NCBI GenBank assembly: GCA_044370415.1
Contig: JBILVO010000004.1
Span: forward strand, 3,467-67,466
Direction: 5' to 3'
Origin: Pirellulales bacterium
GTDB taxonomy: Bacteria; Planctomycetota; Planctomycetia; Pirellulales; UBA1268
DNA: 64,000 nt
Shown here: positions 16,286 to 48,866 of the stretch, one piece after another
Layout of the letters: the number at the start of each line of letters is the position of its first letter
Numbering within the stretch: the first letter of the stretch is position 1
Made by a program: the position numbers and the translations under genes
Notes under the pieces: model-generated
Databases searched by the model: none
What the model saw: the letters and a program-made list of their open reading frames with translations, nothing else
What the model was told of the DNA's origin: nothing

Positions 16286-16297
16286 CGGCGACGCAGC

Positions 16298-17503: not shown

Positions 17504-17586
17504 GATTGGCAACTCCTCAGGGTGAGCCAAGGTTTTCGGCCGTTTGCCCGCCGCCTGCAAGAGGCGCGGGCGGTTCGCGGGAGGGA

Positions 17587-18042
17587 TCAGTCGCCGGCAG
17601 TCGGGCCGGGGCAGGCGTCCACGGCCCGCCGCAGCGCGAATCGCGTGGCGACGTGCAGGAGGAACCCGACGGGACCGGCCAGAAACGTGAACACGAGCGC
17701 GATCGTGCGGATGGGCCAGGGGAGGCCGAGCCGGACGGCATCCCTGGCGATCCACGCCCCCACGACCATGTCGAACACGAGATAGTGCGTCCAGGCTGCG
17801 GCGAACACCCAGTCGTCGGCGAACACAGCCCGCAGGCCGGTGAGCGTCATGACGTCGTCCGGCGGCGGGCCGTTCTCCGCGAGCTTCCAGCCGATCACGG
17901 CGGCGTAGGCCGCCGCCAGCAGCCCGGGCACGAGCACAGCGCAGAGCGTGTGAGAGACGAACCTCCGGCCCGGCGCGGCCACCAGGACGATCCAGGCGAG
18001 CAGGGCGACGGTGTTCGTGACCTGAAAAAAGAGCTGGGGCAT
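17587..18042 (-). CDS. ABA4-like (DUF4281) membrane protein
   Basis: AAAWTHYLVFDMVVGAWIARDA and FTFLAGPVGFLL motifs. Confidence 0.82.
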   Translation of the reverse strand: MPQLFFQVTNTVALLAWIVLVAAPGRRFVSHTLCAVLVPGLLAAAYAAVIGWKLAENGPPPDDVMTLTGLRAVFADDWVFAAAWTHYLVFDMVVGAWIARDAVRLGLPWPIRTIALVFTFLAGPVGFLLHVATRFALRRAVDACPGPTAGD

Positions 18043-30204: not shown

Positions 30205-30326
30205 TGCCGTTCGCGGTCGAAACCTGCTTTTTGGGCGGCTGCACGGGCGGTTCCGAGACGCCTCGCCGAGGTCTCGGGGCCAGCCGCGTCGTCCATCTGG
30301 CGCAGCCACTTTTCGGGGCGTATCGG

Positions 30327-31403
30327 ATGTCTGAAAAGAAGAAAATGTCGGTGGCTGAAATCATGGCCGCGGCGCGGGCCCAAAAGGCCGCCGCCACGGG
30401 CTCCGAAGCGACGCCCGAAACCGCCGCGGAGCCGACAGCCGACCCGCCAGCCTCTCCGAAAACAGCTGCCCCGAAGACCGCGGCGGCAAAGCCCGCGGCG
30501 GCCTCTGCGGGCGGCAGGCCCAGCGTCGCCGAAATGATGGCGATGGCTCGCGCTCAGAAGTCGGGCGATGCGGCGGCCGCACCGAAGCCGGCGGCCAAGC
30601 CGGCCGCGGCGGCCGACAAGCCCAAACCCGCCGCCAAGCCGGCGGCAGCGAAGCCGGCGGGCGGCGCGCCGAAGACCGGCGTGCAGCGCGACACCGCAAG
30701 CATCCTCGCAGCGGCGCGGGCGGCCGCGAAGCCGGGCCCCGTCAGCAAGGCCGACGCGCCCCCCGGGGTCGCCGCCCGACTCCAGCCCGCCGCGAAGGCC
30801 AAGTCCGCAGTCGAAAAGCCCGCGGCGGCGCCGCGGGCACTGCCTCCGATGCCGGTGAGGCCCGCGAAGCCGGCGAAGAAGGACGCGGCGGGGGAGAATC
30901 GTCGCGGCTTCCTCGAAATCGCGCTCGGATCGTTCATGGCGATGGGCTTCAGCGCCCTATCGGTCACCGGCGGGCTCTTCACGCTGGGCCTCGCGCGATA
31001 CATGTTTCCCAACGTCCTCGCCGAGCCTCCGAGCCGCTTCAAGGTGGGCTTCAAGGAGGGCTTCCCTGCCGGCAAGGTGGAGACGAAGTTCGTCCCGCAG
31101 TACGGCGTGTGGGTCGTGAACGGCGAGTTCCAGGGGCAGCAGCAGATCTACGCCCTGAAGACCGTGTGCACGCACCTCGGCTGCACGCCCAACTGGCTCG
31201 AGGCCGAGCAGAAGTTCAAGTGCCCCTGCCACGGCAGCGGGTTCTACAAGGACGGCATCAACTTCGAGGGGCCCGCGCCGCGGCCGCTGGAGCGGTACGC
31301 CGTGCGGATCTCCGACGACGGCCAGCTCGAGATCGACAAGAGCCGGGCCTTCCAGGAGGAACTCGGCCAGTGGGCCGACCCCGACTCGTTCGTGCCCGTC
31401 TGA
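30327..31403 (+). CDS. qcrA: Rieske iron-sulfur subunit of a Rieske/cytochrome b complex, with long low-complexity N-terminal extension
   Basis: Tat motif NRRGFL + TM; CTHLGC and CPCHGSGF; GPAPRPL. Confidence 0.93.
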   Translation: MSEKKKMSVAEIMAAARAQKAAATGSEATPETAAEPTADPPASPKTAAPKTAAAKPAAASAGGRPSVAEMMAMARAQKSGDAAAAPKPAAKPAAAADKPKPAAKPAAAKPAGGAPKTGVQRDTASILAAARAAAKPGPVSKADAPPGVAARLQPAAKAKSAVEKPAAAPRALPPMPVRPAKPAKKDAAGENRRGFLEIALGSFMAMGFSALSVTGGLFTLGLARYMFPNVLAEPPSRFKVGFKEGFPAGKVETKFVPQYGVWVVNGEFQGQQQIYALKTVCTHLGCTPNWLEAEQKFKCPCHGSGFYKDGINFEGPAPRPLERYAVRISDDGQLEIDKSRAFQEELGQWADPDSFVPV

Positions 31404-31469
31404 GCCACGCCCCCCGCGACCTACTGACAGACCAAACAGGACCACCGGAACAGGAAACGACAGCCCCCC

Positions 31470-32243
31470 ATGGCCATCGGCGAAACCATCCGCAACTCCC
31501 AGATCTGGAAGAGCATCTTCCGGCATCCGATGCCGCTCGACAGGCGGAACCGGATCGTCGTGATGCTGACGAACTTCTTCCTGCACCTTCACCCGGTGTC
31601 GATCAAGAAGCAGGGCATCGCCCTGTCGTTCACCTGGTGCATGGGCGGCGTGACCTTCTTCCTGTTCCTCGTGGAGACGGTCACCGGCGTGCTGCTGATG
31701 TTCTACTACCGTCCCACGCTCGAGTGGGCCTACAACGACATCCTCGCTCTCCGCGACGTCACGAGCCTCGGCATCCTGCGGGAGCTCCATCGCTGGGGAG
31801 CCCATGCGATGGTGATCACCACGTGGCTGCACATGTATCGCGTGTTCCTCACCGGCAGCTACAAGCCGCCGCGCGAGTTCAACTGGGTGATTGGCGTGAT
31901 CCTGCTGTTGCTCACGCTCTTGCTCTCGTTCACCGGCTACCTCCTGCCGTGGGACCAGCTGGCGATCTGGGCCATCACGGTCGGCTCCAACATGGCCCGC
32001 GCCACCCCGATCCTCGGCTACGAGGGCCCCGGCCAGCAGCTGCTCACGATCGGCGGGATCGACATGATCACCGACGGCTCCGACGCGAGGTTCGGCCTGC
32101 TCGGCGCCCGCTTCGTGGGCGAGGAAACGCTCAACCGCTTCTACGTGCTGCACTGCATCGCCATCCCGCTCGTGGTGGCACTGCTCCTGGCGATCCACTT
32201 CTGGCGCGTGCGAAAGGACGGCGGCATCAGCGGGCCGCTGTAG
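31470..32243 (+). CDS. qcrB: Cytochrome b6-type N-terminal subunit
   Basis: WCMGG, heme ligands LHRWGAH..WLH and [26 protein letters not shown]; ends [10 protein letters not shown] like cyt b6. Confidence 0.93.
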
Positions 32244-32253
32244 ACCGAACCCC

Positions 32254-33579
32254 ATGCACTCAAACGGCTTTTTTCTCAAGGACGTCGCCGGCTTCCTGGG
32301 CGGCTACTACACGTTCGTAGCGCTGATGAACGGCGTCGCCGCCTTCATTCTCTGGCGCCGTAAGAACCAGCCCGGCTGGGCCGTGGTCTGGGCGACGTTC
32401 GCCGGGATCATGATGATCCTCGCCAGCCTGGCGCTGTCCGGCTCGGCCTCGCTGGTGCCGGCGCTGCCGCTGTCGGCCCGCATGCTGGTCAACACGCTCT
32501 CCGGTCCGGTGCTCTACACGCTCGGCACGACGGCGCTGTTCACGATCTTGTTCGTCTTCCGGCGGTTCTTCGTGAAGCCGATGGTCGCCTGGACGATCCT
32601 CAACGCTGCCCTCGTGCTGATGGGCCTCTCAATGGCCGACGAGAACTTCGCCTCCATCGTCATGAAGCCCGACAACGTGCCGATCGTCGGCCTGGTGTTC
32701 CTGCTGGCCTTCTTCACCTGGCTCGCGACGAGCAAGGCCGTCGTCAACGACGACAGGATCGCGCAGGGCCTGCCCCCGCTCGAGAAACTCGACGACGAGA
32801 AGGTGCTCGTGTGGCCCGACTTGGTCTACACGGAGCTGATCTGCATGATCGCCGTGTCGGCGTTCCTGCTCGTCTGGGCGATCTTCCTCCAGGCGCCGCT
32901 CGAGGAGCCGGCCAGCAGCGTCAAGACTCCCAACCCGTCGAAAGCGCCGTGGTACTTCCTTGGGTTGCAGGAGATGCTCGTCTACTTCGATCCCTGGTAT
33001 GCGGGAGTCGTGCTGCCGAGCCTGGTCGTATTCGGCCTGATGGCGATGCCCTACCTGGACTTCAACAAGAAGGGCAACGGCTACTACTCGATCGAGGAGC
33101 GCAAGTTCAGCTACCTCGTGTACCAGTTCGGTTTTTTCGAACTCTGGATCACGCTGATCATCCTCGGCACGTTCCTCCGTGGCCCCAACTGGAACTTCTT
33201 CGGGCCGTTCGAGTATTGGACTCCCTACAAGGTCGAGGTGCTCAACAACGTCGATCTTCCGCAGATGTTCTGGGTCAACCTGCTCGACCGCCCGCTGCCT
33301 CGTGCGCCGCAGGGCGCAAGCGCGTTGACTCAGGTCGGAACCATCTTGCTGCGTGAATCGCCGGGGATCGTGCTGATGGGAGCCTACCTCTTGCTCCTGC
33401 CGCCGCTGCTCGCGGTCACCGTGTTCCGTTCGTTCTTCGCCAAGATGGGTTTCGTGCGGTACATGCTGATGGCGAACCTGATGCTGCTGATGTTGTCGCT
33501 GCCACTGAAGATGATCCTGCGGTGGACGCTCAACCTGAAATACATCGTGAGCATTCCCGAATTCTCTCTCAACTTCTAG
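32254..33579 (+). CDS. Expanded subunit IV (PetD/QcrC-like, cytochrome b C-terminal domain) with extra TM helices
   Basis: VWPDLVYTEL, LEEPASSVKTPNPSKAPWYFLGLQEML; many additional hydrophobic segments. Confidence 0.82.
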   Translation: MHSNGFFLKDVAGFLGGYYTFVALMNGVAAFILWRRKNQPGWAVVWATFAGIMMILASLALSGSASLVPALPLSARMLVNTLSGPVLYTLGTTALFTILFVFRRFFVKPMVAWTILNAALVLMGLSMADENFASIVMKPDNVPIVGLVFLLAFFTWLATSKAVVNDDRIAQGLPPLEKLDDEKVLVWPDLVYTELICMIAVSAFLLVWAIFLQAPLEEPASSVKTPNPSKAPWYFLGLQEMLVYFDPWYAGVVLPSLVVFGLMAMPYLDFNKKGNGYYSIEERKFSYLVYQFGFFELWITLIILGTFLRGPNWNFFGPFEYWTPYKVEVLNNVDLPQMFWVNLLDRPLPRAPQGASALTQVGTILLRESPGIVLMGAYLLLLPPLLAVTVFRSFFAKMGFVRYMLMANLMLLMLSLPLKMILRWTLNLKYIVSIPEFSLNF

Positions 33580-33669: not shown

Positions 33670-36600
33670 ATGCCTGCCACAGAACAGACCTGGCGTAATT
33701 TGAAGGTGCTGCACGTCGTCTTCGGCGTCGTGGCCATCCTGCTGCTGCTGGCGACCGTGCTCATGCTGGCGATCGACCACGACCGCCCGTGGAAGAAGTA
33801 CCAGCGGGAGTTCCGCGCCCTCGAGACCTGGTCGGCGGCCGCCCGGATCGACGAGCAGGAGTCGCGTTCGTTCGCCGAGCAGTCCACGACGCTGGAGGCA
33901 GCGGTCGCCGAGGCCCGCCGCGCGAGCCTCGATCCCTCGCTGGCCGACGCCTTCATCGCCCAGGTCCGCAGCGTGCCGGCCGACGCCGAGGCCGCGGACC
34001 GGGCCAAGCTCGACATCGACCAGCTGCAGTCCCAACCCGACCCCGAGCAGCGGCTCGTGCTCCGCGGAGACCTGCTCGCGCGGCTGCGCGACATCGTCGG
34101 CCGTGCCAAGTTCCGCGAGGACCTGCTCGCGGGCCAGCTCAAGCTCCGCAAGGCCGAGCTCGACAAGAACCGCGCCGACTACGAGCTCGCCGTCGCTGAG
34201 GACGCCGCCCAGGAGAAGCTCGTCGCGCTGCTGGCGGTCGCCGACGCCAAGCGGGCCGAGGTGACGACCGCCACGCTCGACTTCCAGACAGCTAACACGC
34301 ACCGCAAGACGCTCGACGCCATGCTGCGGAAGCTCACGGCGGACGAGGACGCCGCGGCCAAGGCTCTCGCCGACCATCGCGGCAAGCTCGGCCAGCTCGC
34401 CAAGGCGCTCAAGGAGCGGGCGCCCAACGCCGGCAAGTCGCTCCTGGAGCTGCCGGTGCTCGACGCGTTCAACGGACCGCTCCGTGTCGACCAGATCTGG
34501 CTGCCACAGCTGACGCTCAACAACAACTTCCGCGACGTGGCCCGGTTCGACCGCTGCGTCACCTGCCACAAGGGCATGGACAAGTCGGTGCCCGGATCAC
34601 CCACCGACCCCGCCTACCGGCAGACGGAAATGGTCACGGTTTCGCTGCCGGCCCCCGCGAAGGCGTCGGAGAAGCAGGCCGGCGACGGCAACGCCCAGCT
34701 CGAGGACGCCTACGGATTCCACATCGCCCCGCGCGGCCTGTTCCGCCCCGAGGATCCGACCGTCAGCACCGTGCTGCCGGAGTCACCCGCGGCTGCAGCG
34801 GGCCTGATGAGCGGCGACGTCATCGTTGACATCGGCGGGGGCAAGACGCTCGCCCGCCAGATGGCGGTCACGAGCCTGCTGGAGACGCCCAGTTCGGGCA
34901 AGCCGCTGGAGCTCACCGTCCGCCGTGGCGTGCCGCAGCCCTACGCGACGCACCCGCGGCTCGATCTCTTCGTCGGTTCCACCAGCCCGCATCCGATGCA
35001 GACGTTCGGCTGCACGGTCTGCCACCAGGGGCAGGGGAGTGCGACCAGTTTCAAGTGGTCGTCGCACACGCCCAATACGCCGAAGCAGGGGCACGAGTGG
35101 CATGACGAGCATGGTTGGTTCAACAACCACCACTGGATTTACCCGATGCTGCCGCAGCGGTTCGAGGAGTCGAGCTGCCTGAAATGCCACCACCAGGTCG
35201 TCGACCTCGAGCCGACCGAGCGGTTCCCCGAGCCGCCGGCGCCGAAGCTCGTGGAGGGCTACCACCTGATCCGGCAGTACGGCTGCTACGGCTGCCACGA
35301 GATCAACGGCTGGTCCGGCCCCGACAAGCGGATCGGCCCCGACATGCGGCTGGGGCCCAACTACCACGAGGTGGCGGAGGCGGTCTCCGCCGATCCCGGC
35401 CTGGCGGCGCTCGGCCCGACGGCGAACCGCTGGGTGGAGGAAGTCCGCTCGAGTCCCGACGGTCGGCAGTCGCGCGAGCGGCTCCGCGAATTGCTCGAGC
35501 GCGACGCTGCCGCCGGCGACGCCGCGAAACTGCAGCCGCGTTCGCATCAGCTCGCCGTGCTGCTCAAGGACCCCGAGACGCCGGGAACGCTGCCGAAGGT
35601 CGGCCCGAGCCTGCGGCACGTCGCCAGCAAGGTCGGCTTCGACTGGCTTTACTCCTGGCTGCGAAATCCCCAGGACTTCCGCCCGAGCACGAAGATGCCC
35701 CGCTTCTTCGGCCTCTGGGAGCACCTCGAGGGGAAGGGACTCGAGGAATCGATGCGCTACGAGCCGCTCGAGATCCGCTCGATGATCGCCTACCTGCAGC
35801 GCTCGAGCCAACCGTTCGAGTACGTGAAGCCCTACGACGGCATCACCGCCGCCCCCGACGTGGTCAGGGGCAGGAAGGTGGTCGAGGTGCGCGGGTGCCT
35901 CGCCTGCCACCAGCACGCCGACTTCCCGGCCGCGACCAGCACCCACGGCCCGAACCTGTCGCGGATCGGAGCCAAGGTCGCCTCCCTGCCGCGCGGCAAG
36001 GACTGGCTCTACAGCTGGCTCCGCGAGCCCGCCCGCTACCATCCGCGGACCATCATGCCCAACGTGCTCCTCGAGCCGGTGACGCTCGCCGACGGCAAGG
36101 TCAGCGACCCTGCGGCCGACGCGACCGCCTACCTGCTGCAGTCGACCGAGCAGTGGAAGCCCACCGAGATCCCGGCGGCCGCCTCGCTCACGGACGACGA
36201 GCGCAAGGCGCTCGACGAGCTGGCGCTGATGTATCTCAAGGAACGGTTCCCCACCACCAAGGCCCAGGAGGTGCTCGCCTCGGGACTCTCGGCCGACCAG
36301 TCCCGGATCCAGGGGGACGAACAGATGCTGCTCGGCCTCGCGCCGGCGAACCGTGACGCCACCTTGCTGCACTACGTCGGCAAGAAGACCATCGCCAAGC
36401 TCGCCTGCGCCTCCTGCCACGACATCCCCGGGTTCGAGGACGCCAAGGCGGCCGGCGCGGCGCTGGCCGACTGGGGCCGCAAGGACCCCTCGAAGATCGC
36501 GTTCGAGCAGGTCTCGCACTTCGTCATGCACCAGCTTGCCGACGGCCATGGCCATGGCCACGGGCATGCCCACGACAAGACCCATGCTCAGCACCAGGCG

Positions 36601-38265
36601 CAGGCCCACGCTCCGGGCCATGCCCAAGCCCACGGCACGCAACCAGGGCACGCCGCGACGCATGCGGAGAAGGACGGCCACGGCACCCCGCAGGACGATT
36701 CGTTGGCCACCGATCTGGCCTACGCGTCCACCGAGACCCCGCACCTGAATCCCGAATCGGTCGATTCCGACACCGGCTTCTTCCTCGAGAAGCTCCTCGC
36801 GCACGAGCGTGAGGGCTTCCTCTGGCAGAAGCTGCGGGCGCCGCGGAGCTACGACTACAAGAAGGCGGAGAACAAGAGCTATAACGAGCGCTACCGCATG
36901 CCGAAGTTCCCTTTCGACGACCGGCAGCGGGAGGCGGTGATGACCTTCGTGCTGGGGCTTGTCGCGGAGCCGCCCGCACCGCAATTCGTGAGCCGGCCCG
37001 ACGCCCGTGAGCAGGCCCGGCTCGACGGCCTCAAGGTCGCGGAACAGTACAACTGCGGTGGCTGTCATGCGCTGCAGATGGATCGCTGGGACGTCCGCTA
37101 CAAGCCGGGCTCCCTCGGCGATGCTTCCGAGGTGGCGGACTATCCGTTCCTGTCGCCGCACTTCACCGACCAGGATGTGCAGAAATCGCTCGCCGTCGAC
37201 CGGCAGGGCAGGCGGCACGCCCGGCTCGTCGGCATGCCGGTGCTCGACCCGGCCACCGGCCGGCCACAGTTCGTCGACGAGGACGGCGTCCCGATCGAGG
37301 AGGGAGACACCGAGGCGGCTCCGCACCAGCCCGTGATGCTCTGGCACGACGCGCTCGTCGATGGCCAGCCCAGGATCGTCGGCGGCCAGAACGTCGTCGT
37401 GCCGATCGATGCCGTGAAGGCCGGCACCCACTATCCCTCCCGCGGCGGCGATCTCGCCCGCCTGCTGTTCCCGGTCGTAATCGCCGACGAGAAGCAGATC
37501 AACCCGAACGTCAAGGCCGACGACGCCTGGGGCTGGCTGCCGCCGCCGCTTGTGGGCGAGGGGAAGAAGGTGCAGTCCGGCTGGCTGCACAAGTTCCTGC
37601 TCAACCCGCAGACCATCCGGCCGTCCGCCGTGCTGCGGATGCCGCGGTTCAACTTCCAGTCGTCGGAGGCGGCCGCCCTGGTCGAATACTTCGCGGCCGT
37701 CGACGGCGCCGACTCGCCCTACGTCTATGATCCGCGTCTCGACGAGAGCTCGCTCGCCGCGACGGAGCAGGGCAAGCCCGGCCACCTCGAGGGCGCGCTC
37801 AAGATCGTCACCAACAACAACTACTGCGTGAAGTGCCACCTCGTCGGCAGCTACTCGCCGCCGGGCAACCCGAAGGCGCTCGCGCCGCAGCTGGAGCGGG
37901 TGCACGAGCGGCTGCGGCCCGACTACGTGCACAATTGGATCGCCAATCCGAAGCGCTACCTGCCCTACACCGGCATGCCGGTGAACATCCCGTACGACAA
38001 GCCTGTGAGCCAGGATCTCTACGCGGGCACGAGCGAGCAGCAGGTAGACGCCCTCACGGATCTGCTCATGCACTTCGACGCCTTCGCCAAGCGGAGCCTG
38101 TCGCTGGAGGCCTACCTACGGCAGCAGCCCGCCCCCCAGCAGGGGCAGCAGCCGGCTGCCAGCGTGTCTCCCGGCGAGCAGCCCGTTCCCGACACAACGC
38201 CTGCCGAACGGCGGGTTCCGCCGCAGGCGTCAGCCTCCCGAGGGCCGTCCACGGCGCTAAACTGA
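33670..38265 (+). CDS. Membrane-anchored octaheme cytochrome c with coiled coil, PDZ domain and His-rich insert
   Basis: Eight CxxCH motifs (34555, 35011, 35176, 35284, 35896, 36406, 37054, 37825); N-terminal TM; PDZ-like VSTVLPESPAAAAGLMSGDVIVDI. Confidence 0.9.
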   Translation: MPATEQTWRNLKVLHVVFGVVAILLLLATVLMLAIDHDRPWKKYQREFRALETWSAAARIDEQESRSFAEQSTTLEAAVAEARRASLDPSLADAFIAQVRSVPADAEAADRAKLDIDQLQSQPDPEQRLVLRGDLLARLRDIVGRAKFREDLLAGQLKLRKAELDKNRADYELAVAEDAAQEKLVALLAVADAKRAEVTTATLDFQTANTHRKTLDAMLRKLTADEDAAAKALADHRGKLGQLAKALKERAPNAGKSLLELPVLDAFNGPLRVDQIWLPQLTLNNNFRDVARFDRCVTCHKGMDKSVPGSPTDPAYRQTEMVTVSLPAPAKASEKQAGDGNAQLEDAYGFHIAPRGLFRPEDPTVSTVLPESPAAAAGLMSGDVIVDIGGGKTLARQMAVTSLLETPSSGKPLELTVRRGVPQPYATHPRLDLFVGSTSPHPMQTFGCTVCHQGQGSATSFKWSSHTPNTPKQGHEWHDEHGWFNNHHWIYPMLPQRFEESSCLKCHHQVVDLEPTERFPEPPAPKLVEGYHLIRQYGCYGCHEINGWSGPDKRIGPDMRLGPNYHEVAEAVSADPGLAALGPTANRWVEEVRSSPDGRQSRERLRELLERDAAAGDAAKLQPRSHQLAVLLKDPETPGTLPKVGPSLRHVASKVGFDWLYSWLRNPQDFRPSTKMPRFFGLWEHLEGKGLEESMRYEPLEIRSMIAYLQRSSQPFEYVKPYDGITAAPDVVRGRKVVEVRGCLACHQHADFPAATSTHGPNLSRIGAKVASLPRGKDWLYSWLREPARYHPRTIMPNVLLEPVTLADGKVSDPAADATAYLLQSTEQWKPTEIPAAASLTDDERKALDELALMYLKERFPTTKAQEVLASGLSADQSRIQGDEQMLLGLAPANRDATLLHYVGKKTIAKLACASCHDIPGFEDAKAAGAALADWGRKDPSKIAFEQVSHFVMHQLADGHGHGHGHAHDKTHAQHQAQAHAPGHAQAHGTQPGHAATHAEKDGHGTPQDDSLATDLAYASTETPHLNPESVDSDTGFFLEKLLAHEREGFLWQKLRAPRSYDYKKAENKSYNERYRMPKFPFDDRQREAVMTFVLGLVAEPPAPQFVSRPDAREQARLDGLKVAEQYNCGGCHALQMDRWDVRYKPGSLGDASEVADYPFLSPHFTDQDVQKSLAVDRQGRRHARLVGMPVLDPATGRPQFVDEDGVPIEEGDTEAAPHQPVMLWHDALVDGQPRIVGGQNVVVPIDAVKAGTHYPSRGGDLARLLFPVVIADEKQINPNVKADDAWGWLPPPLVGEGKKVQSGWLHKFLLNPQTIRPSAVLRMPRFNFQSSEAAALVEYFAAVDGADSPYVYDPRLDESSLAATEQGKPGHLEGALKIVTNNNYCVKCHLVGSYSPPGNPKALAPQLERVHERLRPDYVHNWIANPKRYLPYTGMPVNIPYDKPVSQDLYAGTSEQQVDALTDLLMHFDAFAKRSLSLEAYLRQQPAPQQGQQPAASVSPGEQPVPDTTPAERRVPPQASASRGPSTALN

Positions 38266-38363: not shown

Positions 38364-39173
38364 ATGACCACTCGTTCGAACAGCACATGCGCACGCCGCC
38401 TCGCCACCTGCGCCGCCGGCCTCGCCGCCGGCCTCGCTCTGGGCATCGGTGCGGCCTCGGCCGGCGCCGAGGAATGGGGCACGATCAAGGGGCGGTTCCT
38501 CTTCGGGGGCACGCCGCCGACGGCCGCGGAGATCAAGGCAGACAAGGACGTCGAGGTCTGCGGCAAGCACAAGCTCGTCAATGAGGAACTCTCCATCGGC
38601 TCCGACAAGGGGCTCGGCAACGTGGTCGTATTCGTGCGTGACAAGGAAGTGAAGATCCATCCCGACGCCGCCGCGGGCAAGACCGAGAAGGTCGTCCTCG
38701 ACAACAAGGACTGCCGGTTCACCCCCCACGTCGCGTTCGTGCAGACCGGACAGCCGTTCATCCTCAAGAACTCCGACACCGTCGGCCACAACAGCAACGT
38801 GGCCACGCTCAAGAACCCGCCGTCCAACAGCCTGATCCCGGCCGGCGGCGAGTCGAGCATCACGTTCGCCAACGACGAGGCGATCCCCGCGCAGGTAACG
38901 TGCAACATCCATCCGTGGATGAAGGCCTGGGTGCTCGTGCGGCCCAATCCCTACGCCGCCGTTTCGAAGGCCGACGGCAGCTTCGAGATCAAGAACGTGC
39001 CGGCCGGCGAGGTCGAACTGCAGTTCTGGCACGAGAAGGCCGGCTACATCGGCGAGGTTACCGTCGGCGGCAAGACCGAGAAGATCTCCAAGGGCCGCAA
39101 GAAGGTGAAGGTCGCCGCGGCGGGCACCGACCTCGGCGACATGACCCTGGCTCCGGCCCTCTTCCAGAAGTGA
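38364..39173 (+). CDS. Exported beta-sandwich/cupredoxin-like protein with H...CxxHxxM motif
   Basis: Signal peptide; DNKDCRFTPHV, NSDTVGHN, CNIHPWM. Confidence 0.75.
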   Translation: MTTRSNSTCARRLATCAAGLAAGLALGIGAASAGAEEWGTIKGRFLFGGTPPTAAEIKADKDVEVCGKHKLVNEELSIGSDKGLGNVVVFVRDKEVKIHPDAAAGKTEKVVLDNKDCRFTPHVAFVQTGQPFILKNSDTVGHNSNVATLKNPPSNSLIPAGGESSITFANDEAIPAQVTCNIHPWMKAWVLVRPNPYAAVSKADGSFEIKNVPAGEVELQFWHEKAGYIGEVTVGGKTEKISKGRKKVKVAAAGTDLGDMTLAPALFQK

Positions 39174-39179
39174 CGTCTC

Positions 39180-40064
39180 ATGACCAGGCTCCCTCCCGTT
39201 CTTTTCGTCGCCTCGTGTTTCGTGATGCTCCAGGGCTGCGGCCCGACGCGTCTCGCCGCGCCAATCGCCGACGCCGGGGCCGCTGAGAAGATTCGTGCGA
39301 CCCTCGTCGCCGCTTCGGCGGGCGGCGGTGGTGGCGGGACGGCCGCTGCCACCGGCACGGGCTGGGCCACGCTCAAGGGCCGCTTCACGTTTGCTGGCAC
39401 TCCCGGCCAGGCCAAGGCTCTCGTCGTCGACAAGGACACCGAGGTCTGCTCGAAGGGCGGCATGAAACTCTTGGACCGGTCGCTGCTGGTCGATCCGTCC
39501 AGCAAGGGCCTCGCCAACGTCGTGGTCTTCGCCCGTAAGACCAGCCGCGTGAAGGAGGCTGACGCCTCCGGCACCCCGCCGGTGTTCGACCAGAAGAACT
39601 GCGAATTCCTCACGCCGGTGTTCGCCGCCCGCGTCGGCCAGCCGATCGACGTGAAGAACAGCGACCCCGTGGGCCACAACACGAACGTCGCGGGTACGAG
39701 CTTCAATCAGCTCATTCCGGCCGGCGCCGGCACGCTGTTCAAGCCCGATTCCGAGACCGGCATGCCGACGATGGTGACCTGCAACATCCACCCGTGGATG
39801 AAGGCCTACGCCGTCTTCCGGAAAGACGGCTACGTCTCGGTCAGCGCCGCGGACGGCTCGTTCACCATCCCCGACCTGCCCGCGGGCGAGACCATCGAAT
39901 TCCAGGTCTGGCACGAGCGTTCCAGCGGCCCCAACGGCGCGGTGGGCATCGACAAGCCCGACCTGAAGTGGACGCCAAAGGGCCGCTTCCAGATCAAGCT
40001 CCAGGAAAACGAGGTCAAGGATCTCGGCGCCCTCGAGGTGCCGGCCTCCGCGATCGGCACGTGA
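39180..40064 (+). CDS. Lipoprotein paralog of the upstream cupredoxin-like protein
   Basis: Lipobox LQGC; DQKNCEFLTPV, NSDPVGHN, CNIHPWM. Confidence 0.75.
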   Translation: MTRLPPVLFVASCFVMLQGCGPTRLAAPIADAGAAEKIRATLVAASAGGGGGGTAAATGTGWATLKGRFTFAGTPGQAKALVVDKDTEVCSKGGMKLLDRSLLVDPSSKGLANVVVFARKTSRVKEADASGTPPVFDQKNCEFLTPVFAARVGQPIDVKNSDPVGHNTNVAGTSFNQLIPAGAGTLFKPDSETGMPTMVTCNIHPWMKAYAVFRKDGYVSVSAADGSFTIPDLPAGETIEFQVWHERSSGPNGAVGIDKPDLKWTPKGRFQIKLQENEVKDLGALEVPASAIGT

Positions 40065-40105: not shown

Positions 40106-41353
40106 ATGAACCTCCTCTCTGCCTGCCGCATCCTGCCCGCGACACTCGCCGCTTGTCTCGCGCTTGCCGCCACCGGTTGCGGCACCACGCCACCGGCATC
40201 CTTCCGTCCCAACATGGTGGAGGCTGCGGCGCCATCCGCCGAGAAGGACTCGATCTCCGCCGAGCAGGCGCTCACGCCTGCCCAGCGAAAGCAGGTCGCC
40301 ACCATCCTCCTCGCCATGTTCGGCACGCCCGACAATCCCGTGGCGCTGCCCGAGACGGGCCTCGACGAGGCGAAGTTGCACCTGTGCGCCGGCCCGGTCC
40401 GCAGCGACATCGTGGGCCGCAAGAACGGCCTCTACCGCGAGCACTGTGCCCACTGCCACGGCATCAGCGGCGACGGTCTCGGCCCAACGGCCGCATTCCT
40501 CAACCCCTACCCCCGCGACTATCGGCCTGGCGTTTTCAAGTTCAAGAGCACCGAGCGGGCCGACAAGCCGACGCACGCCGACCTCGTGCGCATCCTCCAC
40601 AACGGCATCCCCGGCACGTCGATGCCGTCGTTCGCACTCCTGAGCGCGGCCCAGGTCGACGCGCTCGCCGAGTACGTGAAATACCTCAGCATCCGCGGCG
40701 AGACCGAACTGGCGCTCATGCGGGCGTTCTTTGAGCTCGACGACGACGCCCAGGGCACTCTGCCGGAGACGAAGGAGTTCCTCGTCGGCGAGACCCTAAC
40801 GCCGATCGCGGAAAAGTGGCAGGCAGCCGCGGCCGCACAGATTCCGGTGCCGGTGATGCCTGCCGACCTCGACATGACCGCCTCCATCGCCAAGGGGCGC
40901 GAGCTCTTCTACGGCGACAAGGCCAACTGCGTGAAGTGCCACGGCCCCACCGCTCTCGGCGACGGTCAGGCCAACGATTACGACGACTGGAACAAGAACG
41001 TCCACAAGATCACCAACAAGCTGGTGAAGCTCCGCGAGTCCGAGAATGGCCTTGACGCGGGGCAGCGGACCTGGGCCAACGAGTTCTCGCAGGTGCTCGC
41101 CGGCGACGCGCTCAGGCCCCGGACGATTCCGCCGCGAAACCTGCGGCAGGGCGTCTACCGCGGCGGTCGCCGTCCGATCGACCTCTACTACCGGATCCAC
41201 GCCGGCATCAACGGCGCGCCGATGCCGGCCGCCAAGGGCACCATCTCGCCGGAGGACATCTGGCACATCGTCAACTACATCCAGTCGCTGCCCTATGACT
41301 TCGACGGCGAACTCGGGGCGGATCGACCGATGGTGGCACAGGATCGGTACTGA
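40106..41353 (+). CDS. Diheme cytochrome c lipoprotein
   Basis: Lipobox ATGC; CAHCH and CVKCH; candidate distal Met in GTSMP and GAPMP. Confidence 0.88.
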   Translation: MNLLSACRILPATLAACLALAATGCGTTPPASFRPNMVEAAAPSAEKDSISAEQALTPAQRKQVATILLAMFGTPDNPVALPETGLDEAKLHLCAGPVRSDIVGRKNGLYREHCAHCHGISGDGLGPTAAFLNPYPRDYRPGVFKFKSTERADKPTHADLVRILHNGIPGTSMPSFALLSAAQVDALAEYVKYLSIRGETELALMRAFFELDDDAQGTLPETKEFLVGETLTPIAEKWQAAAAAQIPVPVMPADLDMTASIAKGRELFYGDKANCVKCHGPTALGDGQANDYDDWNKNVHKITNKLVKLRESENGLDAGQRTWANEFSQVLAGDALRPRTIPPRNLRQGVYRGGRRPIDLYYRIHAGINGAPMPAAKGTISPEDIWHIVNYIQSLPYDFDGELGADRPMVAQDRY

Positions 41354-41509: not shown

Positions 41510-42307
41510 ATGAGCCGACTGTCTGGAATCTTCTGGTCTCTGCTGTTCCTCGCCGTGCCGGTGCTGGGCGTGGCCACGTTCGCCGTGGCGCCCGCCTACG
41601 ACATCTGGCTGCCGAAGGACGTCTCCGAGCACGGTCCCGCGATCGACGGCCTGTTCATGTTCATCCTCGTCCTCACGGGCGTGGTCTTCATCGTCACGGA
41701 GATGCTGCTCTTTTGGTTCATCTGGAAGTACGATGCATCGCAGGTGAAGGGACCCGCCACCTACATCCATGGCAGCCACGTGCTCGAGGTAGTGTGGACG
41801 ATCATCCCGGCGGCCACGCTGCTCTTCCTCGCGATCTACCAGATGAACACCTGGGCCGACGTGAAGATGCGTCGGCCCGCGATGGCACCGACCGTGGAGG
41901 TCGTGGCGCGGCAGTTCGAGTGGCGGCTCCGCTATCCGGGCCGCGACGGCGTGCTGGGCACCCGCGACGACCTGTTCCTCACGAACGACCTGCACGTGCC
42001 GGTCGACGAGGATGTCCTCATCCAGCTCAAGAGCATGGACGTGCTCCACAGCTTCTTCCTCCCCAACCTGCGGATCAAGCAGGACGCCGTGCCGGGCATG
42101 AAGATTCCGGTCTGGTTCAAGGCGAAGGAGACGGGACAGTTCGACATCGTCTGTGCCGAGCTGTGCGGCTGGGGCCACTACAAGATGAAGGGCCGCATCA
42201 CCGTCGAATCCCGTGCCGACTTCGACCGCTGGCTCGAGGAGACCTACGCCCGCCAGGAGGCGACGCAGCCCGCTCCCGAGGACGTCGCCGCCTCCACCGC
42301 CGAGTGA
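41510..42307 (+). CDS. coxB: Cytochrome c oxidase subunit II
   Basis: LEVVWTIIP, RQFEW, CuA ligands DVLHSF and CAELCGWGHYKM. Confidence 0.95.
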   Translation: MSRLSGIFWSLLFLAVPVLGVATFAVAPAYDIWLPKDVSEHGPAIDGLFMFILVLTGVVFIVTEMLLFWFIWKYDASQVKGPATYIHGSHVLEVVWTIIPAATLLFLAIYQMNTWADVKMRRPAMAPTVEVVARQFEWRLRYPGRDGVLGTRDDLFLTNDLHVPVDEDVLIQLKSMDVLHSFFLPNLRIKQDAVPGMKIPVWFKAKETGQFDIVCAELCGWGHYKMKGRITVESRADFDRWLEETYARQEATQPAPEDVAASTAE

Positions 42308-42388: not shown

Positions 42389-44206
42389 ATGAGCATCGCT
42401 ACGACCTCCTCGCTCTCGCACGGAACGGCCACGAGCCTGCCGCCGGCCCGCAAACCGCGGCCGGTGGCCGAATTCCTCTCGACCTACGTCTTTTCCAAGG
42501 ACCACAAGGTCATCGGCCTGCAGTTCCTCTTCTCCACGCTGCTGTGGTTCCTCATCGGCGGGCTCTTGGCGCTCGCCGTCCGCTGGCAGGTCGCCTGGCC
42601 GTGGTCCGACGTGCCGGTGCTCGGCAAGCTGTTCGCGCAGCAGGGCGGCCAGATGTCGCCCGAGTTCTACACGATGCTCTTCACGATGCACGCCTCGGTG
42701 ATGATCTTCCTGGTGATCATCCCGATCCTCGCGGGCGCCTTCGGCAACTTCCTCATCCCGCTGATGATCGGCGCCGATGACATGGCGTTCCCCACGCTCA
42801 ACATGCTTTCGTACTGGTTCATGTGGCCCGCCTTCGCCTGCTTCGGTGCGAGCTTCTTCGTCGAGGGCGGCGCCGCCTCGGGCGGCTGGACGAGCTACCC
42901 GACACTGTCGACGAACCCCGCGTCGTCGCCCTCCAGCGGCATGGGGCAGACGCTCTGGCTGCTCGGCCTCACCTTTGTGGGCGTTTCGAGCATGCTCGGC
43001 AGCGTCAACTACATGACCACGATCATCCTCATGCGGGCGCCGGGCATGACGATGTTTCGCCTGCCGATGACGATCTGGGGCATGTTCATCACCGCCATCC
43101 TCCAGGCCTTCGCCCTCCCCGTGCTCACGGCGGCCGGCTTCATGCAACTGGCGGACCGCATGTTCGGCACCGGCTTCTTCTCGCCCGAGGGGAACGTCGT
43201 CAACAACGCGATCGCCGGCGCCGGCGGCGGCCAACCGCTCCTCTGGCAGCACCTCTTCTGGTTCTACAGCCACCCGGCCGTCTACATCATGATCCTGCCG
43301 GCGATGGGCATGGTGAGCGACATCCTCACCGTCTTCGCCCGCAAGCCGCTGTTCGGCTATCGGCCGATGGTCTACTCGGTCGCCGGCATCGCCGGCCTCG
43401 GGTTCATCGTCTGGGGCCACCACATGTTCATGTCGGGCATGAACCCGGCGCTGGGCATCACCTTCATGGTGTCGACGATGATGATCGCCCTGCCGAGCGC
43501 CGTGAAGACGTTCAACTGGCTCGGCACTCTGTGGGGTGGAAAGATCGAGTTCACGACGTCGATGCTCTTCGCACTCTCGTTCGTCTCGATGTTCATCATC
43601 GGCGGCCTGTCGGGCATCTTCATGGCCGCCACCCCGGTCGACATCTTCATCCACGACACCTACTTCATCGTGGCGCACTTCCACTACGTGCTCTTCGCCG
43701 GCACGGCGATGGGAGTGTGGGCGGCGATCTACTTCTGGTTCCCGAAGATGTTCGGCCGCACGATGAACGAGTTCTGGGGGAAGGCCCACTTCTTCCTGAC
43801 CTTCATCTTCCTCAACGGCACGTTCTTCACGATGCACATCCTCGGCGCCGTGGGCTTCCCGCGGCGGCTCGCCGATGCATACCACTACGAGACGTTCCAC
43901 CACCTGCAGCCGCTCAACGCGTTCATGACGTGGTGCGCCATCGGCATGGTGTCGTGCCAGATCATCTTCGCGATCAACTTCTTCTGGAGCATGTTCTTCG
44001 GCCCGGTCGCAGGCCGGAATCCGTGGAACGCCAACACGCTCGAGTGGACCGCGCCGAGCCCTCCTGGCCACGGCAACTTCGACTTCCAGCCCGTGGTCTA
44101 CCGCGGGCCGTACGAATACTCGGTGCCGGGCGTCGAGAAGGACCACCTGATGCAGACCGATCCTCCGAACGCGGCCGCGGCGGCTGCTGCGGCGGCGTCG
44201 CACTGA
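42389..44206 (+). CDS. coxA: Cytochrome c oxidase subunit I, type A2
   Basis: TMHAS, helix VI WFYSHPAVY (YS motif = A2), WGHHM, VAHFHY, GFPRR. Confidence 0.97.
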   Translation: MSIATTSSLSHGTATSLPPARKPRPVAEFLSTYVFSKDHKVIGLQFLFSTLLWFLIGGLLALAVRWQVAWPWSDVPVLGKLFAQQGGQMSPEFYTMLFTMHASVMIFLVIIPILAGAFGNFLIPLMIGADDMAFPTLNMLSYWFMWPAFACFGASFFVEGGAASGGWTSYPTLSTNPASSPSSGMGQTLWLLGLTFVGVSSMLGSVNYMTTIILMRAPGMTMFRLPMTIWGMFITAILQAFALPVLTAAGFMQLADRMFGTGFFSPEGNVVNNAIAGAGGGQPLLWQHLFWFYSHPAVYIMILPAMGMVSDILTVFARKPLFGYRPMVYSVAGIAGLGFIVWGHHMFMSGMNPALGITFMVSTMMIALPSAVKTFNWLGTLWGGKIEFTTSMLFALSFVSMFIIGGLSGIFMAATPVDIFIHDTYFIVAHFHYVLFAGTAMGVWAAIYFWFPKMFGRTMNEFWGKAHFFLTFIFLNGTFFTMHILGAVGFPRRLADAYHYETFHHLQPLNAFMTWCAIGMVSCQIIFAINFFWSMFFGPVAGRNPWNANTLEWTAPSPPGHGNFDFQPVVYRGPYEYSVPGVEKDHLMQTDPPNAAAAAAAAASH

Positions 44207-46501: not shown

Positions 46502-47488
46502 ATGTCCGCCTCAGCGATCACGGCTTCCCACGGCCACGACGGCCACGGTCACGGTCACGACGACGGCCACCACGGGCACATCACACTGCAGTACCAGCCC
46601 GGGCTGCCGCTCACTCGCGGCAAGCTGATCATGTGGCTGTTCTTGTCGACGGAGATCATGTTCTTCGCGGCGCTGCTGGGCAGCTACGTCGTGCTGCGGT
46701 TCGGCGCCCCCGTCTGGCCCAAGCCGCATCACGTGCACCTGTCGGAGCCGATCGGGGCGTTCAACACCTTCGTGCTGATCTGCTCGAGCGTCACCATCGT
46801 TCTCGCCCTCGAGTCCGCGCGGGCCAACAAGGCGAGCGTGGCGAAGATCTGGATGCTGCTGACCCTCCTGCTCGGAACGCTCTTCCTCGGCGTGAAGGGC
46901 TACGAGTACGCGGCCAAGTTCTCGCACGGCATCTACCCGGCGATGCCCCACAGCCGCATCTACGAGCGGCCCGATCTCTACTACGGCTCCGCCGTCCGGG
47001 CCAGGCTCGGCGAGCCGGCGATCATCGACAGGCTCAAGGAACTCGACGACACGCCCGCCGACAAGCTGACCGCCGAGCAGGTCGCGGCCCGCGGCCGGCT
47101 CCAGCAGATCCGCAAGATGGTGGCGAGCCCCGACCAGCAGGCCTTCGACCTCGCCGTCGTCGCCGACCAGGTGATGCCGCTGCCGACGGAGGGCTCCGGG
47201 AGCGACCACGGCGGAGGGCACGGTGGCCACGCCAGCGGCCTCAACGACGTCTTCCCGTGGCTGAGGCTGCCCACCGTCATTCCCGGCGGCAACATGTGGG
47301 CCAGCACCTACTTCCTGCTCACGGGCTTCCACGCGATCCACGTCGGCGTGGGACTGCTCGTGTTCGCGATCATGCTCACCTGGACGCTCAATGCCAAGCG
47401 GGCCGGGGCGATCGAGAACATCGGCCTCTACTGGCACTTCGTCGATCTCGTGTGGATCTTCCTCTTCCCGCTCCTCTACCTCTTTTGA
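46502..47488 (+). CDS. coxC: Cytochrome c oxidase subunit III with His-rich N-terminus and large insertion
   Basis: [57 protein letters not shown]. Confidence 0.93.
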
Positions 47489-47493
47489 GGCTC

Positions 47494-47994
47494 ATGATGT
47501 CCGACCACGACCCCCACGGCCCCGTCACCCGGCCCGGCGCGTCCGCCGACGAGACGCTGCAGCACGCGATCGAGGCGGAGCACGGCGGACACGGCGACCA
47601 CCACTCCCACGGCGGGCTGGGCAAGTACCTGCTCGTGTTCCTCGCCCTCTGCGGCCTGACGACGATGTCGTTCTTCACCTACTCGCCGGCCTGGCCCTGG
47701 CGGGACCAGCCGCAGGTGGGCTGGACCTTCATGATGGCGGTCTCGTGCACGAAGGCGATGCTCGTGATCCTGTGCTTCATGCACGTCTGGTGGGAGGCGA
47801 ACTGGAAGTACGTGCTCACGATCCCCGCCGCCATGATGGCGCTGTTTCTGGCGATCATGCTCATCCCCGACATCGGCCTGCGGAACCGGATGGTTTCTCA
47901 GGAGCGGGCGCTGCACATGGCGCGGGGCTCCGACGTGCGGCTTATGGAGCAGGCCGGCGAGGCGAAGGCGCTCGAGCAACCGGCGGGGCACTGA
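47494..47994 (+). CDS. coxD: Cytochrome c oxidase subunit IV
   Basis: YLLVFLALCGLT, KAMLVILCFMHV, three TM segments. Confidence 0.85.
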   Translation: MMSDHDPHGPVTRPGASADETLQHAIEAEHGGHGDHHSHGGLGKYLLVFLALCGLTTMSFFTYSPAWPWRDQPQVGWTFMMAVSCTKAMLVILCFMHVWWEANWKYVLTIPAAMMALFLAIMLIPDIGLRNRMVSQERALHMARGSDVRLMEQAGEAKALEQPAGH

Positions 47995-48185
47995 ATACAC
48001 GCGAAACACGGCCATCCTGGCCGTTTTCGCTGGGAACCTCGCGACGGCCGTCCGGGCCGTCGAGTCACACACTTGATACACGCGAAACACGGCCATCCTG
48101 GCCGTTTTCGCTGGGAACCTCGCGACGGCCGTCCGGGCCGTCGGAGGGGATGCCTGATCCACACGAAACACGGCCGTCCATGGCC
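47995..48185. repeat. 81-bp-period tandem element: two identical 68-bp copies + one degenerate partial copy, each full copy with two hairpins
   Basis: ATACACGCGAAACACGGCCATCCTGGCCGTTTTCGCTGGGAACCTCGCGACGGCCGTCCGGGCCGTCG at 47995 and 48076; partial at 48157. Confidence 0.92.
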
Positions 48186-48866
48186 CACAGTGAAACGTTG
48201 TCCAGCAAAGACGTCAGTGTCTCGCGTGGCATTCTTGCCGCAGTCGTGATCGCGTGCGTCACCCCGGCCTGTCTCGGCTGTGGCCGGCCCGCTGCGGTCG
48301 AGGCCGTGCCGCGCGTCCGCGAATCCGCTCCACAACCGGCGCCGGCGCGGATGGAGCCGGGCGCGCCGGCGGCGCGGTTCCTGCTCACCGAGCGCGACGG
48401 CACCCCGTTCGATTCCGCTGCGCTTCGCGGCAAGGTCTGGCTGGCAAGCGTGTTCTTCGCCAACTGCCCCGGCCCGTGCTTCCGCGAGAACCAGGCGATC
48501 GCCGACATCCTGCGGGCCATTCCCGATCCCGATTTCGTCGCCGTCAGCGTGACCTGCGATCCGGAAAATGACACGCCGGAGGCGCTGCGTCGCTACGCCG
48601 AGCGTTTCGAGGCCGACGCGGGCCGCTGGAAGTTCCTCACCGGCGACATGGCCACGATCAAAGAGCTCGCCAACGGCACCCTCCTGTTGCCGGCGGAAGT
48701 GGGCGTGCACTCGGAACGGGGCGTCGTCTTCGACCGGCAGGGACGGCTGCGCGGCAGCTACCACCTGCTGCAGCCCGACCGCGTGAAGCTGCTGGAGAAG
48801 CTGATCCGCGAGGTGCTCGACGAGCCCGCGGACGCCGCCGCCCCCGGGGAGGAGGTCCGTCCATGA
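48180..48866 (+). CDS. SCO family copper chaperone (start uncertain)
   Basis: Lipobox CLGC; FFANCPGPC (CxxxC), SVTCDPENDT, GVHS. Confidence 0.9.
   Translation: MAHSETLSSKDVSVSRGILAAVVIACVTPACLGCGRPAAVEAVPRVRESAPQPAPARMEPGAPAARFLLTERDGTPFDSAALRGKVWLASVFFANCPGPCFRENQAIADILRAIPDPDFVAVSVTCDPENDTPEALRRYAERFEADAGRWKFLTGDMATIKELANGTLLLPAEVGVHSERGVVFDRQGRLRGSYHLLQPDRVKLLEKLIREVLDEPADAAAPGEEVRP

Follow-up and report, generated by a model that had tools for sequence, protein, structure and literature searches.

Two paralogous, probable type-1 copper proteins encoded between the cytochrome bc complex and the aa3 oxidase of a Pirellulales bacterium: candidate tethered electron carriers

A locus of an uncultured Pirellulales bacterium (assembly GCA_044370415.1, contig JBILVO010000004.1) raises the question of whether a pair of putative copper proteins forms part of the route by which electrons pass from the Rieske/cytochrome b complex to the terminal oxidase in Planctomycetota. 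The 64,000-nucleotide stretch analyzed here, referred to as the window, carries two adjacent genes, cupA and cupB, which lie between the genes of a cytochrome bc-type complex (complex III) and those of an aa3-type haem-copper oxidase (complex IV). No paper treating cupA/cupB-type genes in Planctomycetes was found in our literature searches. An initial annotation, made from the sequence alone, had read an amicyanin-spaced type-1 copper motif in both products and had proposed either blue-copper electron carriers or copper chaperones for the CuA center, possibly as fixed subunits of a supercomplex. Our analysis indicated that cupA and cupB very probably encode type-1 copper cupredoxins, and we favor, with moderate confidence, a function in which the two proteins, in a tethered state, carry electrons from the bc complex to the aa3 oxidase.

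The two genes are co-oriented and separated by only 6 nt, and their products were found to be paralogues, with 45% identity over 216 residues (E 2e-51). Translation gave, exactly at the positions read in the initial annotation, an upstream GHN and a downstream CNIHPWM in each protein (Table 1). The two copies also differ in their export signals in the manner noticed at the outset. CupA begins with a hydrophobic signal peptide (approximately residues 1–35, ending in AASAGA before EEW). CupB carries a lipobox-like LQGC (residues 17–20; Cys20 at 39237-39239) after VLFVASCFVM, with an atypical Gln at position -2, and an Ala/Gly-rich linker of approximately 40 residues follows Cys20 and reaches about residue 60. 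The signal peptide of the window cupA (38364-38470) is without a lipobox-like Cys; such a residue (e.g., in LVAAC or VASC) was observed inside the signal peptide of 51 (approximately 45%) of 114 close cupA homologues, a set that includes P0005-P0025, and the “soluble” cupA-type copy may therefore, as judged by these signals, be lipid-anchored in many relatives. Export of CupA by the twin-arginine (Tat) route was also considered, as an ARRL is present, and was rejected because a twin-arginine-like pattern occurred in only 16 of the 114 close homologues.

Searches with the single proteins gave little. No NCBIfam family, the amicyanin model included, matched either protein at E values up to 1, and a search of the PDB (E up to 10) returned nothing significant, with only RACK1 and SdrD as noise. 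The family itself is large: with an E limit of 1e-3 it counts 10,581 cluster representatives (clustered at 50% identity), and with a limit of 1e-30 it counts 636. Its members closest to the window proteins come from uncultured Planctomycetia and Pirellulales. JGI names these relatives “plastocyanin”, NCBI labels them “hypothetical” or “methylamine utilization protein”, and a rhizobial homologue is annotated as a “carboxypeptidase regulatory-like domain-containing protein”. The expectation that such proteins are left with uninformative beta-sandwich names thus held, both in these labels and in the Pfam and NCBIfam results, none of which reached threshold.

A family alignment and profile were built from 60 representatives with 33–48% identity to CupA. 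Six residues, Cys66, Cys117, His142, Cys180, His183, and Met186, were each at least 90% conserved, and all six were kept in 51 of the 60 sequences. By column, His142 was present in 59, Cys180 in 59, His183 in 60, Met186 in 55, and Trp185, within the same loop, in 59. When compared with the PDB, the family profile matched amicyanin (1aac) at E 3e-5 and a mutant entry, the best, at 4.7e-6. The alignment placed His142, Cys180, His183, and Met186 on amicyanin His53, Cys92, His95, and Met98, with identical C-x2-H-x2-M spacing. Because the ligand columns are conserved and are profile-aligned to the amicyanin ligands, CNIHPWM is no chance match.

The predicted structures led to the same fold. The AlphaFold2 models, for which the family alignments served as input, had predicted local distance difference test (pLDDT) scores of 92.1 for CupA and 90.1 for CupB, the first 60 residues of CupB being lower, and in the CupA model the ligand Cys lies at the end of a strand and the Met at the start of the next. 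Foldseek comparison with the PDB yielded amicyanin, the type-1 domain of NirK, a Cu-bound Cupredoxin_1 protein, plastocyanins, pseudoazurin, and CuA domains; the top matches (amicyanin, the NirK type-1 domain, Cupredoxin_1, and plastocyanin) had E values of 1e-6 to 1e-4, a probability of 1.00, and target template modeling (TM) scores of approximately 0.7. The initial annotation had raised the possibility that the motif Cys is instead engaged in a disulfide with the second conserved Cys, and the pattern of loss argues against this. Among the 60 representatives, Cys66 and Cys117 were lost jointly in two sequences, and Cys180 was retained in three of the four sequences without Cys117, suggesting that Cys180 is free as a copper ligand and not a disulfide partner; a Cys66–Cys117 disulfide in CupA is probable from this covariation. 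Taken together, the profile match, the fold, the conserved ligands, and a seemingly free ligand Cys agree, and the assignment of a type-1 copper cupredoxin with amicyanin loop spacing, as first read from the motif, is supported.

From approximately residue 194, CupA continues into a CarboxypepD_reg-like beta-sandwich (PF13620), and CupB has the same C-terminal domain. The two window proteins scored 16.7 and 14.2 bits, below the threshold of 32.3 bits, and the rhizobial homologue P0272 passed it with 35.7 bits. After removal of the cupredoxin in silico, the CarboxypepD_reg match improved from E 0.0096 to 6e-5 and extended from positions 30–57 to positions 11–57 of the hidden Markov model (HMM), now covering the N-terminal strands. 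This suggests, as a lead only, that the cupredoxin may be inserted into a CarboxypepD_reg/prealbumin-like sandwich.

We then turn to where the family occurs. In an even sample of 301 Planctomycetota genomes, the cup family was found in 157 and the window-type C-terminal subunit of cytochrome b, taken here to mark the bc type, in 121, and 119 of these 121 genomes also carry the cup family. A second survey was anchored on cytochrome b, which avoids ascertainment by cup, and covered one genome per family in 40 further families within 10 kb on either side; a cup gene was present in 23 of the 40 loci, either behind the octahaem gene or immediately ahead of a CoxB lacking a cytochrome c domain, 8 of the 40 being cut by contig ends. 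Close relatives from lake metagenomes possess an identical operon, and another family of the class (L063-L068) has it as well.

The position of cup within these loci followed its potential partners. At loci that have the bc and cox genes side by side, the cup gene stands between those for the multihaem cytochrome and CoxB (the window, L044, L063-L068, L073, L089, L093, L099, L100, and L116). Where bc and cox are apart, it follows the multihaem or octahaem gene in L077, L081, L096, L097, L102, and L106, and it heads the oxidase operon at the split or divergent loci L033, L078, L090, L105, L107, L110, and L111, the oxidase operon of L078, L090, and L111 being divergent from bc with cup at its head. 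Cup thus travels with either partner, as expected of a go-between. The arrangement cup-dihaem-CoxB-CoxA was also present at L033 of G190, a 99%-complete genome from the same taxonomic order as the window; a search of this genome at E 1e-30 gave nothing that matched the C-terminal subunit of the window-type cytochrome b, and the G190 oxidase may receive its electrons from another quinol oxidoreductase. At each of the 14 checked loci with cup immediately in front of CoxB, the latter carries a CuA motif and is without CxxCH, and no dihaem-like gene stands between cup and CoxB in the surveyed loci of this arrangement. In L116, CoxB was matched within an open frame of 997 aa (14841-17651) that seemingly continues into CoxA, maybe a fused CoxB-CoxA. 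An ancient split into cupA and cupB lineages was rejected by a maximum-likelihood tree, in which the tandem pairs of the window lineage, family f3, G240, and G172 are independent of one another.

Further evidence came from proteins in which the cup module is joined to a cytochrome. The module forms the C-terminus of an octahaem cytochrome in P0197 (1809 aa, 8 CxxCH, PDZ) and is attached at the C-terminus of L073_2 (1941 aa, 7 CxxCH) via a Pro/Thr-rich linker, and in P0158 a monohaem cytochrome c is fused to it. Operon-linked copies, in family f3 and elsewhere, often have a lipobox and then a low-complexity linker of 40–100 residues. Among operon-linked relatives the lipoboxes read FSGC, MSGC, VTGC, TVGC, or LTAC, with long linkers behind, and the longer family members show a consensus “GC” lipobox ahead of the linker. 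The repeated finding of a lipobox combined with a linker strengthens, as do the fusions, the suggestion of a fixed subunit. The C-x2-H-x2-M loop is intact in each of the 26 copies near respiratory genes.

Paralogues outside the operon presented a different picture, with mostly plain signal peptides and a mature protein that begins at a conserved WGT motif. Some of them adjoin genes for pyrroloquinoline quinone (PQQ)-propeller proteins at three loci, a glucose/sorbosone dehydrogenase gene at one, and an ABC-3 transporter gene, and no conserved neighborhood was found for them beyond these neighbors. Of five near-complete genomes with three to five cup copies, four are without any CuA-domain gene. 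The module was also matched by the BlaR1/peptidase-M56 membrane proteins P0122, P0123, and P0192 from metagenomes, the first two of which also have ankyrin repeats. The two module copies of P0122 have degenerate ligands (Val for His; Asp for Cys or Tyr for Met), with both extra Cys gone, and the cup scaffold thus appears, from these substitutions, to serve also as a non-redox, perhaps sensory, domain in BlaR1-like proteins. In a 1375-aa metagenome protein, P0195, a Ser/Thr kinase and tetratricopeptide repeats occur with a Cu/Zn superoxide dismutase domain, and a cup module with CNIHPWM stands at the C-terminus. In rhizobia, a 239-aa homologue with the full ligand set (LHN...CDAHGWM) is encoded on pSymA of S. 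meliloti (L117 6899-7618) and on a Phyllobacterium plasmid (L118 6899-7615); it is divergent from an SCO gene, a metallophosphoesterase gene and a SoxA-like cytochrome c gene then follow, and genes close by encode a cbb3-like oxidase with fused FixO-FixP as its subunit II.

In the window, which has a G+C content of 70.8%, the two genes lie within a long plus-strand respiratory cluster, delimited with Pfam and haem-motif counts. Its order is Rieske, split cytochrome b, a subunit-IV-like part, octahaem cytochrome c, cupA, cupB, dihaem cytochrome c, CoxB, and CoxA (Table 1), and CtaA, CtaB, CoxC, CoxD, SCO, and DUF420 follow CoxA in that order. The SCO domain occupies residues 328–428 of the open frame 47391-48866, and the SCO gene of close relatives encodes 229–246 aa. 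In the 4.2-Mb, 94%-complete window genome, cupA and cupB are the sole copies of the family. Three more plastocyanin-type (PF00127) domains are encoded elsewhere in this genome (C230:7-645, C18:5784-6131, and C210:11275-11400), two of them inside very long open frames and the third at the edge of a contig, with a cytochrome c domain as its neighbor. A small soluble cytochrome c was also sought there, and PF13442 matched only stop-to-stop frames of 321–1947 aa, which are uninformative at 71% G+C.

Table 1. Coordinates of cupA, cupB, their predicted copper ligands, and the surrounding respiratory genes in the window.
Feature	Position	Strand	Basis or remark
Rieske and cytochrome b genes	30231..33579	+	Pfam; Rieske start uncertain, end 31403
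Cytochrome b, N-terminal part	31470-32243	+	Pfam
Subunit-IV-like C-terminal part of cytochrome b	32254-33579	+	Pfam
Octahaem cytochrome c, membrane-anchored, 1531 aa, 8 CxxCH and PDZ domain	33670..38265	+	Pfam, haem-motif count
cupA, 269 aa	38364..39173	+	translation
cupA His142 codon, in VGHNSN, predicted N-terminal copper ligand	38787-38789	+	alignment with amicyanin His53; 59/60 representatives
cupA predicted ligand loop CNIHPWM, Cys180-x2-His183-x2-Met186	38901-38921	+	translation; alignment with amicyanin CTPHPFM
cupB, 294 aa	39180..40064	+	translation
cupB His166 codon, in VGHNTN	39675-39677	+	translation
cupB predicted ligand loop CNIHPWM, Cys201, His204, Met207 (C201-M207)	39780-39800	+	translation
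Dihaem cytochrome c lipoprotein, 415 aa, lipobox ATGC, 2 CxxCH	40106..41353	+	Pfam, haem-motif count
CoxB, CuA subunit II, 265 aa, without CxxCH or cytochrome c domain	41510..42307	+	Pfam
CoxA, haem-copper oxidase subunit I	42389..44206	+	Pfam COX1, E 3.7e-147
SCO1/SenC copper chaperone, end of the oxidase operon	48126..48866	+	start approximate

From these features we infer copper binding, a redox role, a direction of transfer, and a set of partners as follows. Each of CupA and CupB would reside in the periplasm and bind one Cu via the residues equivalent to His142, Cys180, His183, and Met186 of CupA, within a loop of amicyanin length, and the CarboxypepD_reg-like sandwich could act as a spacer or docking module. 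CupA would be exported by an ordinary signal peptide, and CupB would be tied to the membrane by a lipid anchor and its flexible linker of approximately 40 residues. The presumed donor of single electrons is the high-potential end of the octahaem cytochrome c that belongs to the Rieske/cytochrome b complex, and the acceptor would be the CuA center of a CoxB lacking its own cytochrome c domain. Transfer may be direct or may be shared with the dihaem cytochrome c lipoprotein as a parallel or serial carrier. The two proteins would act in a tethered or bound state and not as a freely diffusing pool.

The initial annotation had left the choice between a carrier and a chaperone for CuA. Its blue-copper carrier agrees with the profile, fold, ligands, placement, and fusions taken together. 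We favor the carrier over the chaperone because the octahaem cytochrome has some of the copies joined to it, as a monohaem cytochrome c has one, because cup stays with the bc operon when the oxidase operon is elsewhere, because the family persists in genomes without a detectable CuA subunit, and because paralogues elsewhere adjoin PQQ-type dehydrogenases. The carrier half of that proposal was strengthened accordingly, and the chaperone half was weakened. The latter nevertheless has real points in its favor. Under this explanation, CupA and CupB would bind periplasmic Cu and, together with SCO, load CuA or CuB, or else buffer copper, thus taking the place of PCuAC; the closest analogy would be with a CopI-like cupredoxin that serves copper tolerance. 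The 94%-complete window genome gave no match to PCuAC (PF04314), which occurred in only 8 of the 301 Planctomycetota genomes, six of them in family f14, in which only 1 of 15 genomes has the cup family. In addition, an SCO gene closes the window operon and adjoins cup in L076 and L105 (divergent), in L113 (same strand), and on the rhizobial megaplasmids. However, the complementary distribution of cup and PCuAC tracks phylogeny and is possibly coincidental, and neither CupA nor CupB matched PF04314. Moreover, a rigid, full His/Cys/His/Met site in an amicyanin-length loop is a signature of electron transfer, unlike the Met/His-rich Cu(I) site of PCuAC; the fusion partners are cytochromes c and not chaperones; the bc linkage is kept when cox is elsewhere; four of the five near-complete multi-copy genomes are without a CuA-domain gene; and PQQ-propeller and glucose/sorbosone-dehydrogenase proteins, which adjoin the paralogues, are typical cupredoxin donors. 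We therefore regard copper handling as unlikely to be the function of the pair.

A role as accessory, stabilizing, or scaffold subunits of the oxidase or of a bc-aa3 supercomplex, with the copper off the main path and the dihaem cytochrome c making the transfer, was first proposed for AcoP and would suit the adjacency of the dihaem lipoprotein gene to CoxB in the window. The extra beta-sandwich, the lipid anchors, and the fusions also suit a fixed position, and the degenerate modules of the BlaR1-like proteins make a non-redox use possible. Such a role is nonetheless improbable for cupA and cupB, as the ligands are strongly conserved in operon-linked copies (C-x2-H-x2-M in 26/26 near respiratory genes), and many lineages are without a dihaem gene between cup and a cytochrome-less CoxB. 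We give a similarly small chance to a branch point, at which the cupredoxins would connect either the oxidase or the bc complex with other periplasmic redox enzymes (e.g., dehydrogenases, PQQ-dependent or otherwise, and nitrogen-oxide reductases). The unlinked paralogues beside dehydrogenase and PQQ-propeller genes point in that direction, as do G190, with its cup-dihaem-CoxB-CoxA order and no bc-type match in a 99%-complete genome, and the rhizobial homologue beside a SoxA-like cytochrome and a cbb3-like oxidase. However, both copies of the window genome lie inside the bc-cox operon with no others present, some copies are fused to the octahaem cytochrome of the bc complex, and the family accompanies the bc type in 119/121 genomes. 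A branch point thus suits the paralogues elsewhere better than cupA and cupB.

Several observations weigh against the proposed function as tethered electron carriers. The curated models recognized CupA only below their thresholds, with 17.3 against 27 bits for Cupredoxin_1 (PF13473) and 13.9 against 21.2 bits for Copper-bind (PF00127), and CupB had no match to either; judged by the profile and fold comparisons, the two proteins are cupredoxin relatives outside the reach of the curated Pfam models. The Planctomycetota genomes behind the co-occurrence counts are related and are not independent samples. Of the 32 uncut loci in the cytochrome b-anchored survey, 9 had no cup gene nearby, and 8 of these 9 genomes hold cup copies elsewhere. 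The dihaem cytochrome c lipoprotein of the operon could by itself link the two complexes, leaving the copper proteins off the main path, and the proximity of SCO to cup in several lineages and in rhizobia, together with the rarity of PCuAC in the phylum and its absence from the matches in the window genome, would fit a role in copper supply. Finally, no spectroscopy, copper analysis, redox potential, knockout, or complex purification was found in the literature for any member of the family.

Going beyond the tethered carrier, we tentatively suggest, as a possibility that we ourselves consider rather doubtful, that in Planctomycetota and in relatives in other phyla complexes III and IV are hard-wired to each other. 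A lipid-anchored or cytochrome-fused two-domain blue-copper protein, and not a diffusible cytochrome c, would then be the last relay to CuA, and the soluble CupA and the tethered CupB would form a two-step or heterodimeric copper wire in an obligate bc-aa3 supercomplex, with the CarboxypepD_reg-like domain used for docking.

If cupA and cupB do encode tethered electron carriers, a family of more than 10,000 clusters (at 50% identity) would represent a widespread respiratory electron carrier concealed under uninformative names. As a bacterial equivalent of sulfocyanin, halocyanin, and AcoP, it would bring a new two-domain build together with forms that are tethered or fused. Its recognition would improve the metabolic annotation of abundant freshwater, marine, and soil planctomycetes and would add copper to the nutrients on which planctomycete respiration depends. 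The free, lipid-anchored, and cytochrome-fused forms would also provide a natural series for the effects of tethering on electron transfer between complexes.

Among known proteins, the nearest solved relative by sequence profile and fold is amicyanin (MauC) of Paracoccus denitrificans and P. versutus (PDB 1aac and 1id2). The likeness consists of the His...Cys-x2-His-x2-Met pattern, an equal loop length (CTPHPFM and CNIHPWM), and the hydrophobic Pro/aromatic pair around the exposed His. In contrast, identity is only approximately 20%, and the window proteins add an N-terminal extension with the conserved Cys pair and the C-terminal CarboxypepD_reg-like domain. The neighbors of cupA and cupB are bc and cox genes and not the methylamine dehydrogenase (mau) genes, and the partners would be the bc complex and the oxidase instead of methylamine dehydrogenase together with cytochrome c-551i. 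CupA and CupB were accordingly rejected as amicyanin orthologues, given the lack of an NCBIfam match and of a mau context and the presence of extra domains. The “methylamine utilization protein” label given by NCBI to homologue P0113 probably stems from a resemblance to MauL-like proteins (the MauL family of CDD), which we presume to belong to the same two-domain family. MauL itself is biochemically uncharacterized, and its name implies a methylamine use for which the gene context of the window gives no support.

The studied case that comes closest in role and gene placement is AcoP of Acidithiobacillus ferrooxidans, a cupredoxin with a single copper that is attached to the membrane and whose gene accompanies those for the dihaem cytochrome c and the oxidase (PMC5982212, PMC4059628, PMC10804444). 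This respiratory-operon cupredoxin co-purifies with the oxidase, its interaction with the dihaem Cyt c4 having been studied electrochemically (PMC5982212). The rus operon, in which AcoP is also called “cup”, has the order cyc2-cyc1-acoP-coxBACD-rus. AcoP differs from the window proteins in being a single domain with a transmembrane anchor and in its context of acidophilic iron oxidation, and it was absent from our PDB sequence matches (E up to 10 for the protein and up to 1 for the profile) and from the top 50 fold matches. Its copper site is green, and its ligand loop is longer. PCuAC (PF04314) resembles CupA and CupB as a periplasmic beta-sandwich copper protein that is encoded near SCO and oxidase genes in other bacteria, but its Cu(I) site is made of His and Met without Cys (motif H(M)X10MX21HXM), and PF04314 had no match in CupA, in CupB, or anywhere in the window genome.

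Other type-1 copper carriers parallel the proposed function more broadly. Sulfocyanin (SoxE of the SoxM supercomplex in Sulfolobus) and haloarchaeal halocyanin are membrane-anchored blue copper proteins thought to stand in for cytochrome c in linking Rieske/cytochrome b with a CuA oxidase; both are single-domain archaeal proteins, whereas the planctomycetal operon keeps ten c-type haems. The plastocyanin of cyanobacteria, which is soluble, and the auracyanin of Chloroflexi, which is lipid-anchored, accept electrons from the b6f complex or ACIII and can donate them to terminal acceptors. Plastocyanins were among the Foldseek matches of CupA, but these carriers are single-domain proteins with another loop length, and their genes are not known to lie between those of complexes III and IV. 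A blue-copper link that joins complexes III and IV is therefore already known in principle, and the present case is an extension of it; what is new is the two-domain build, the series of free, lipid-anchored, and cytochrome-fused forms, and the phylum-wide placement.

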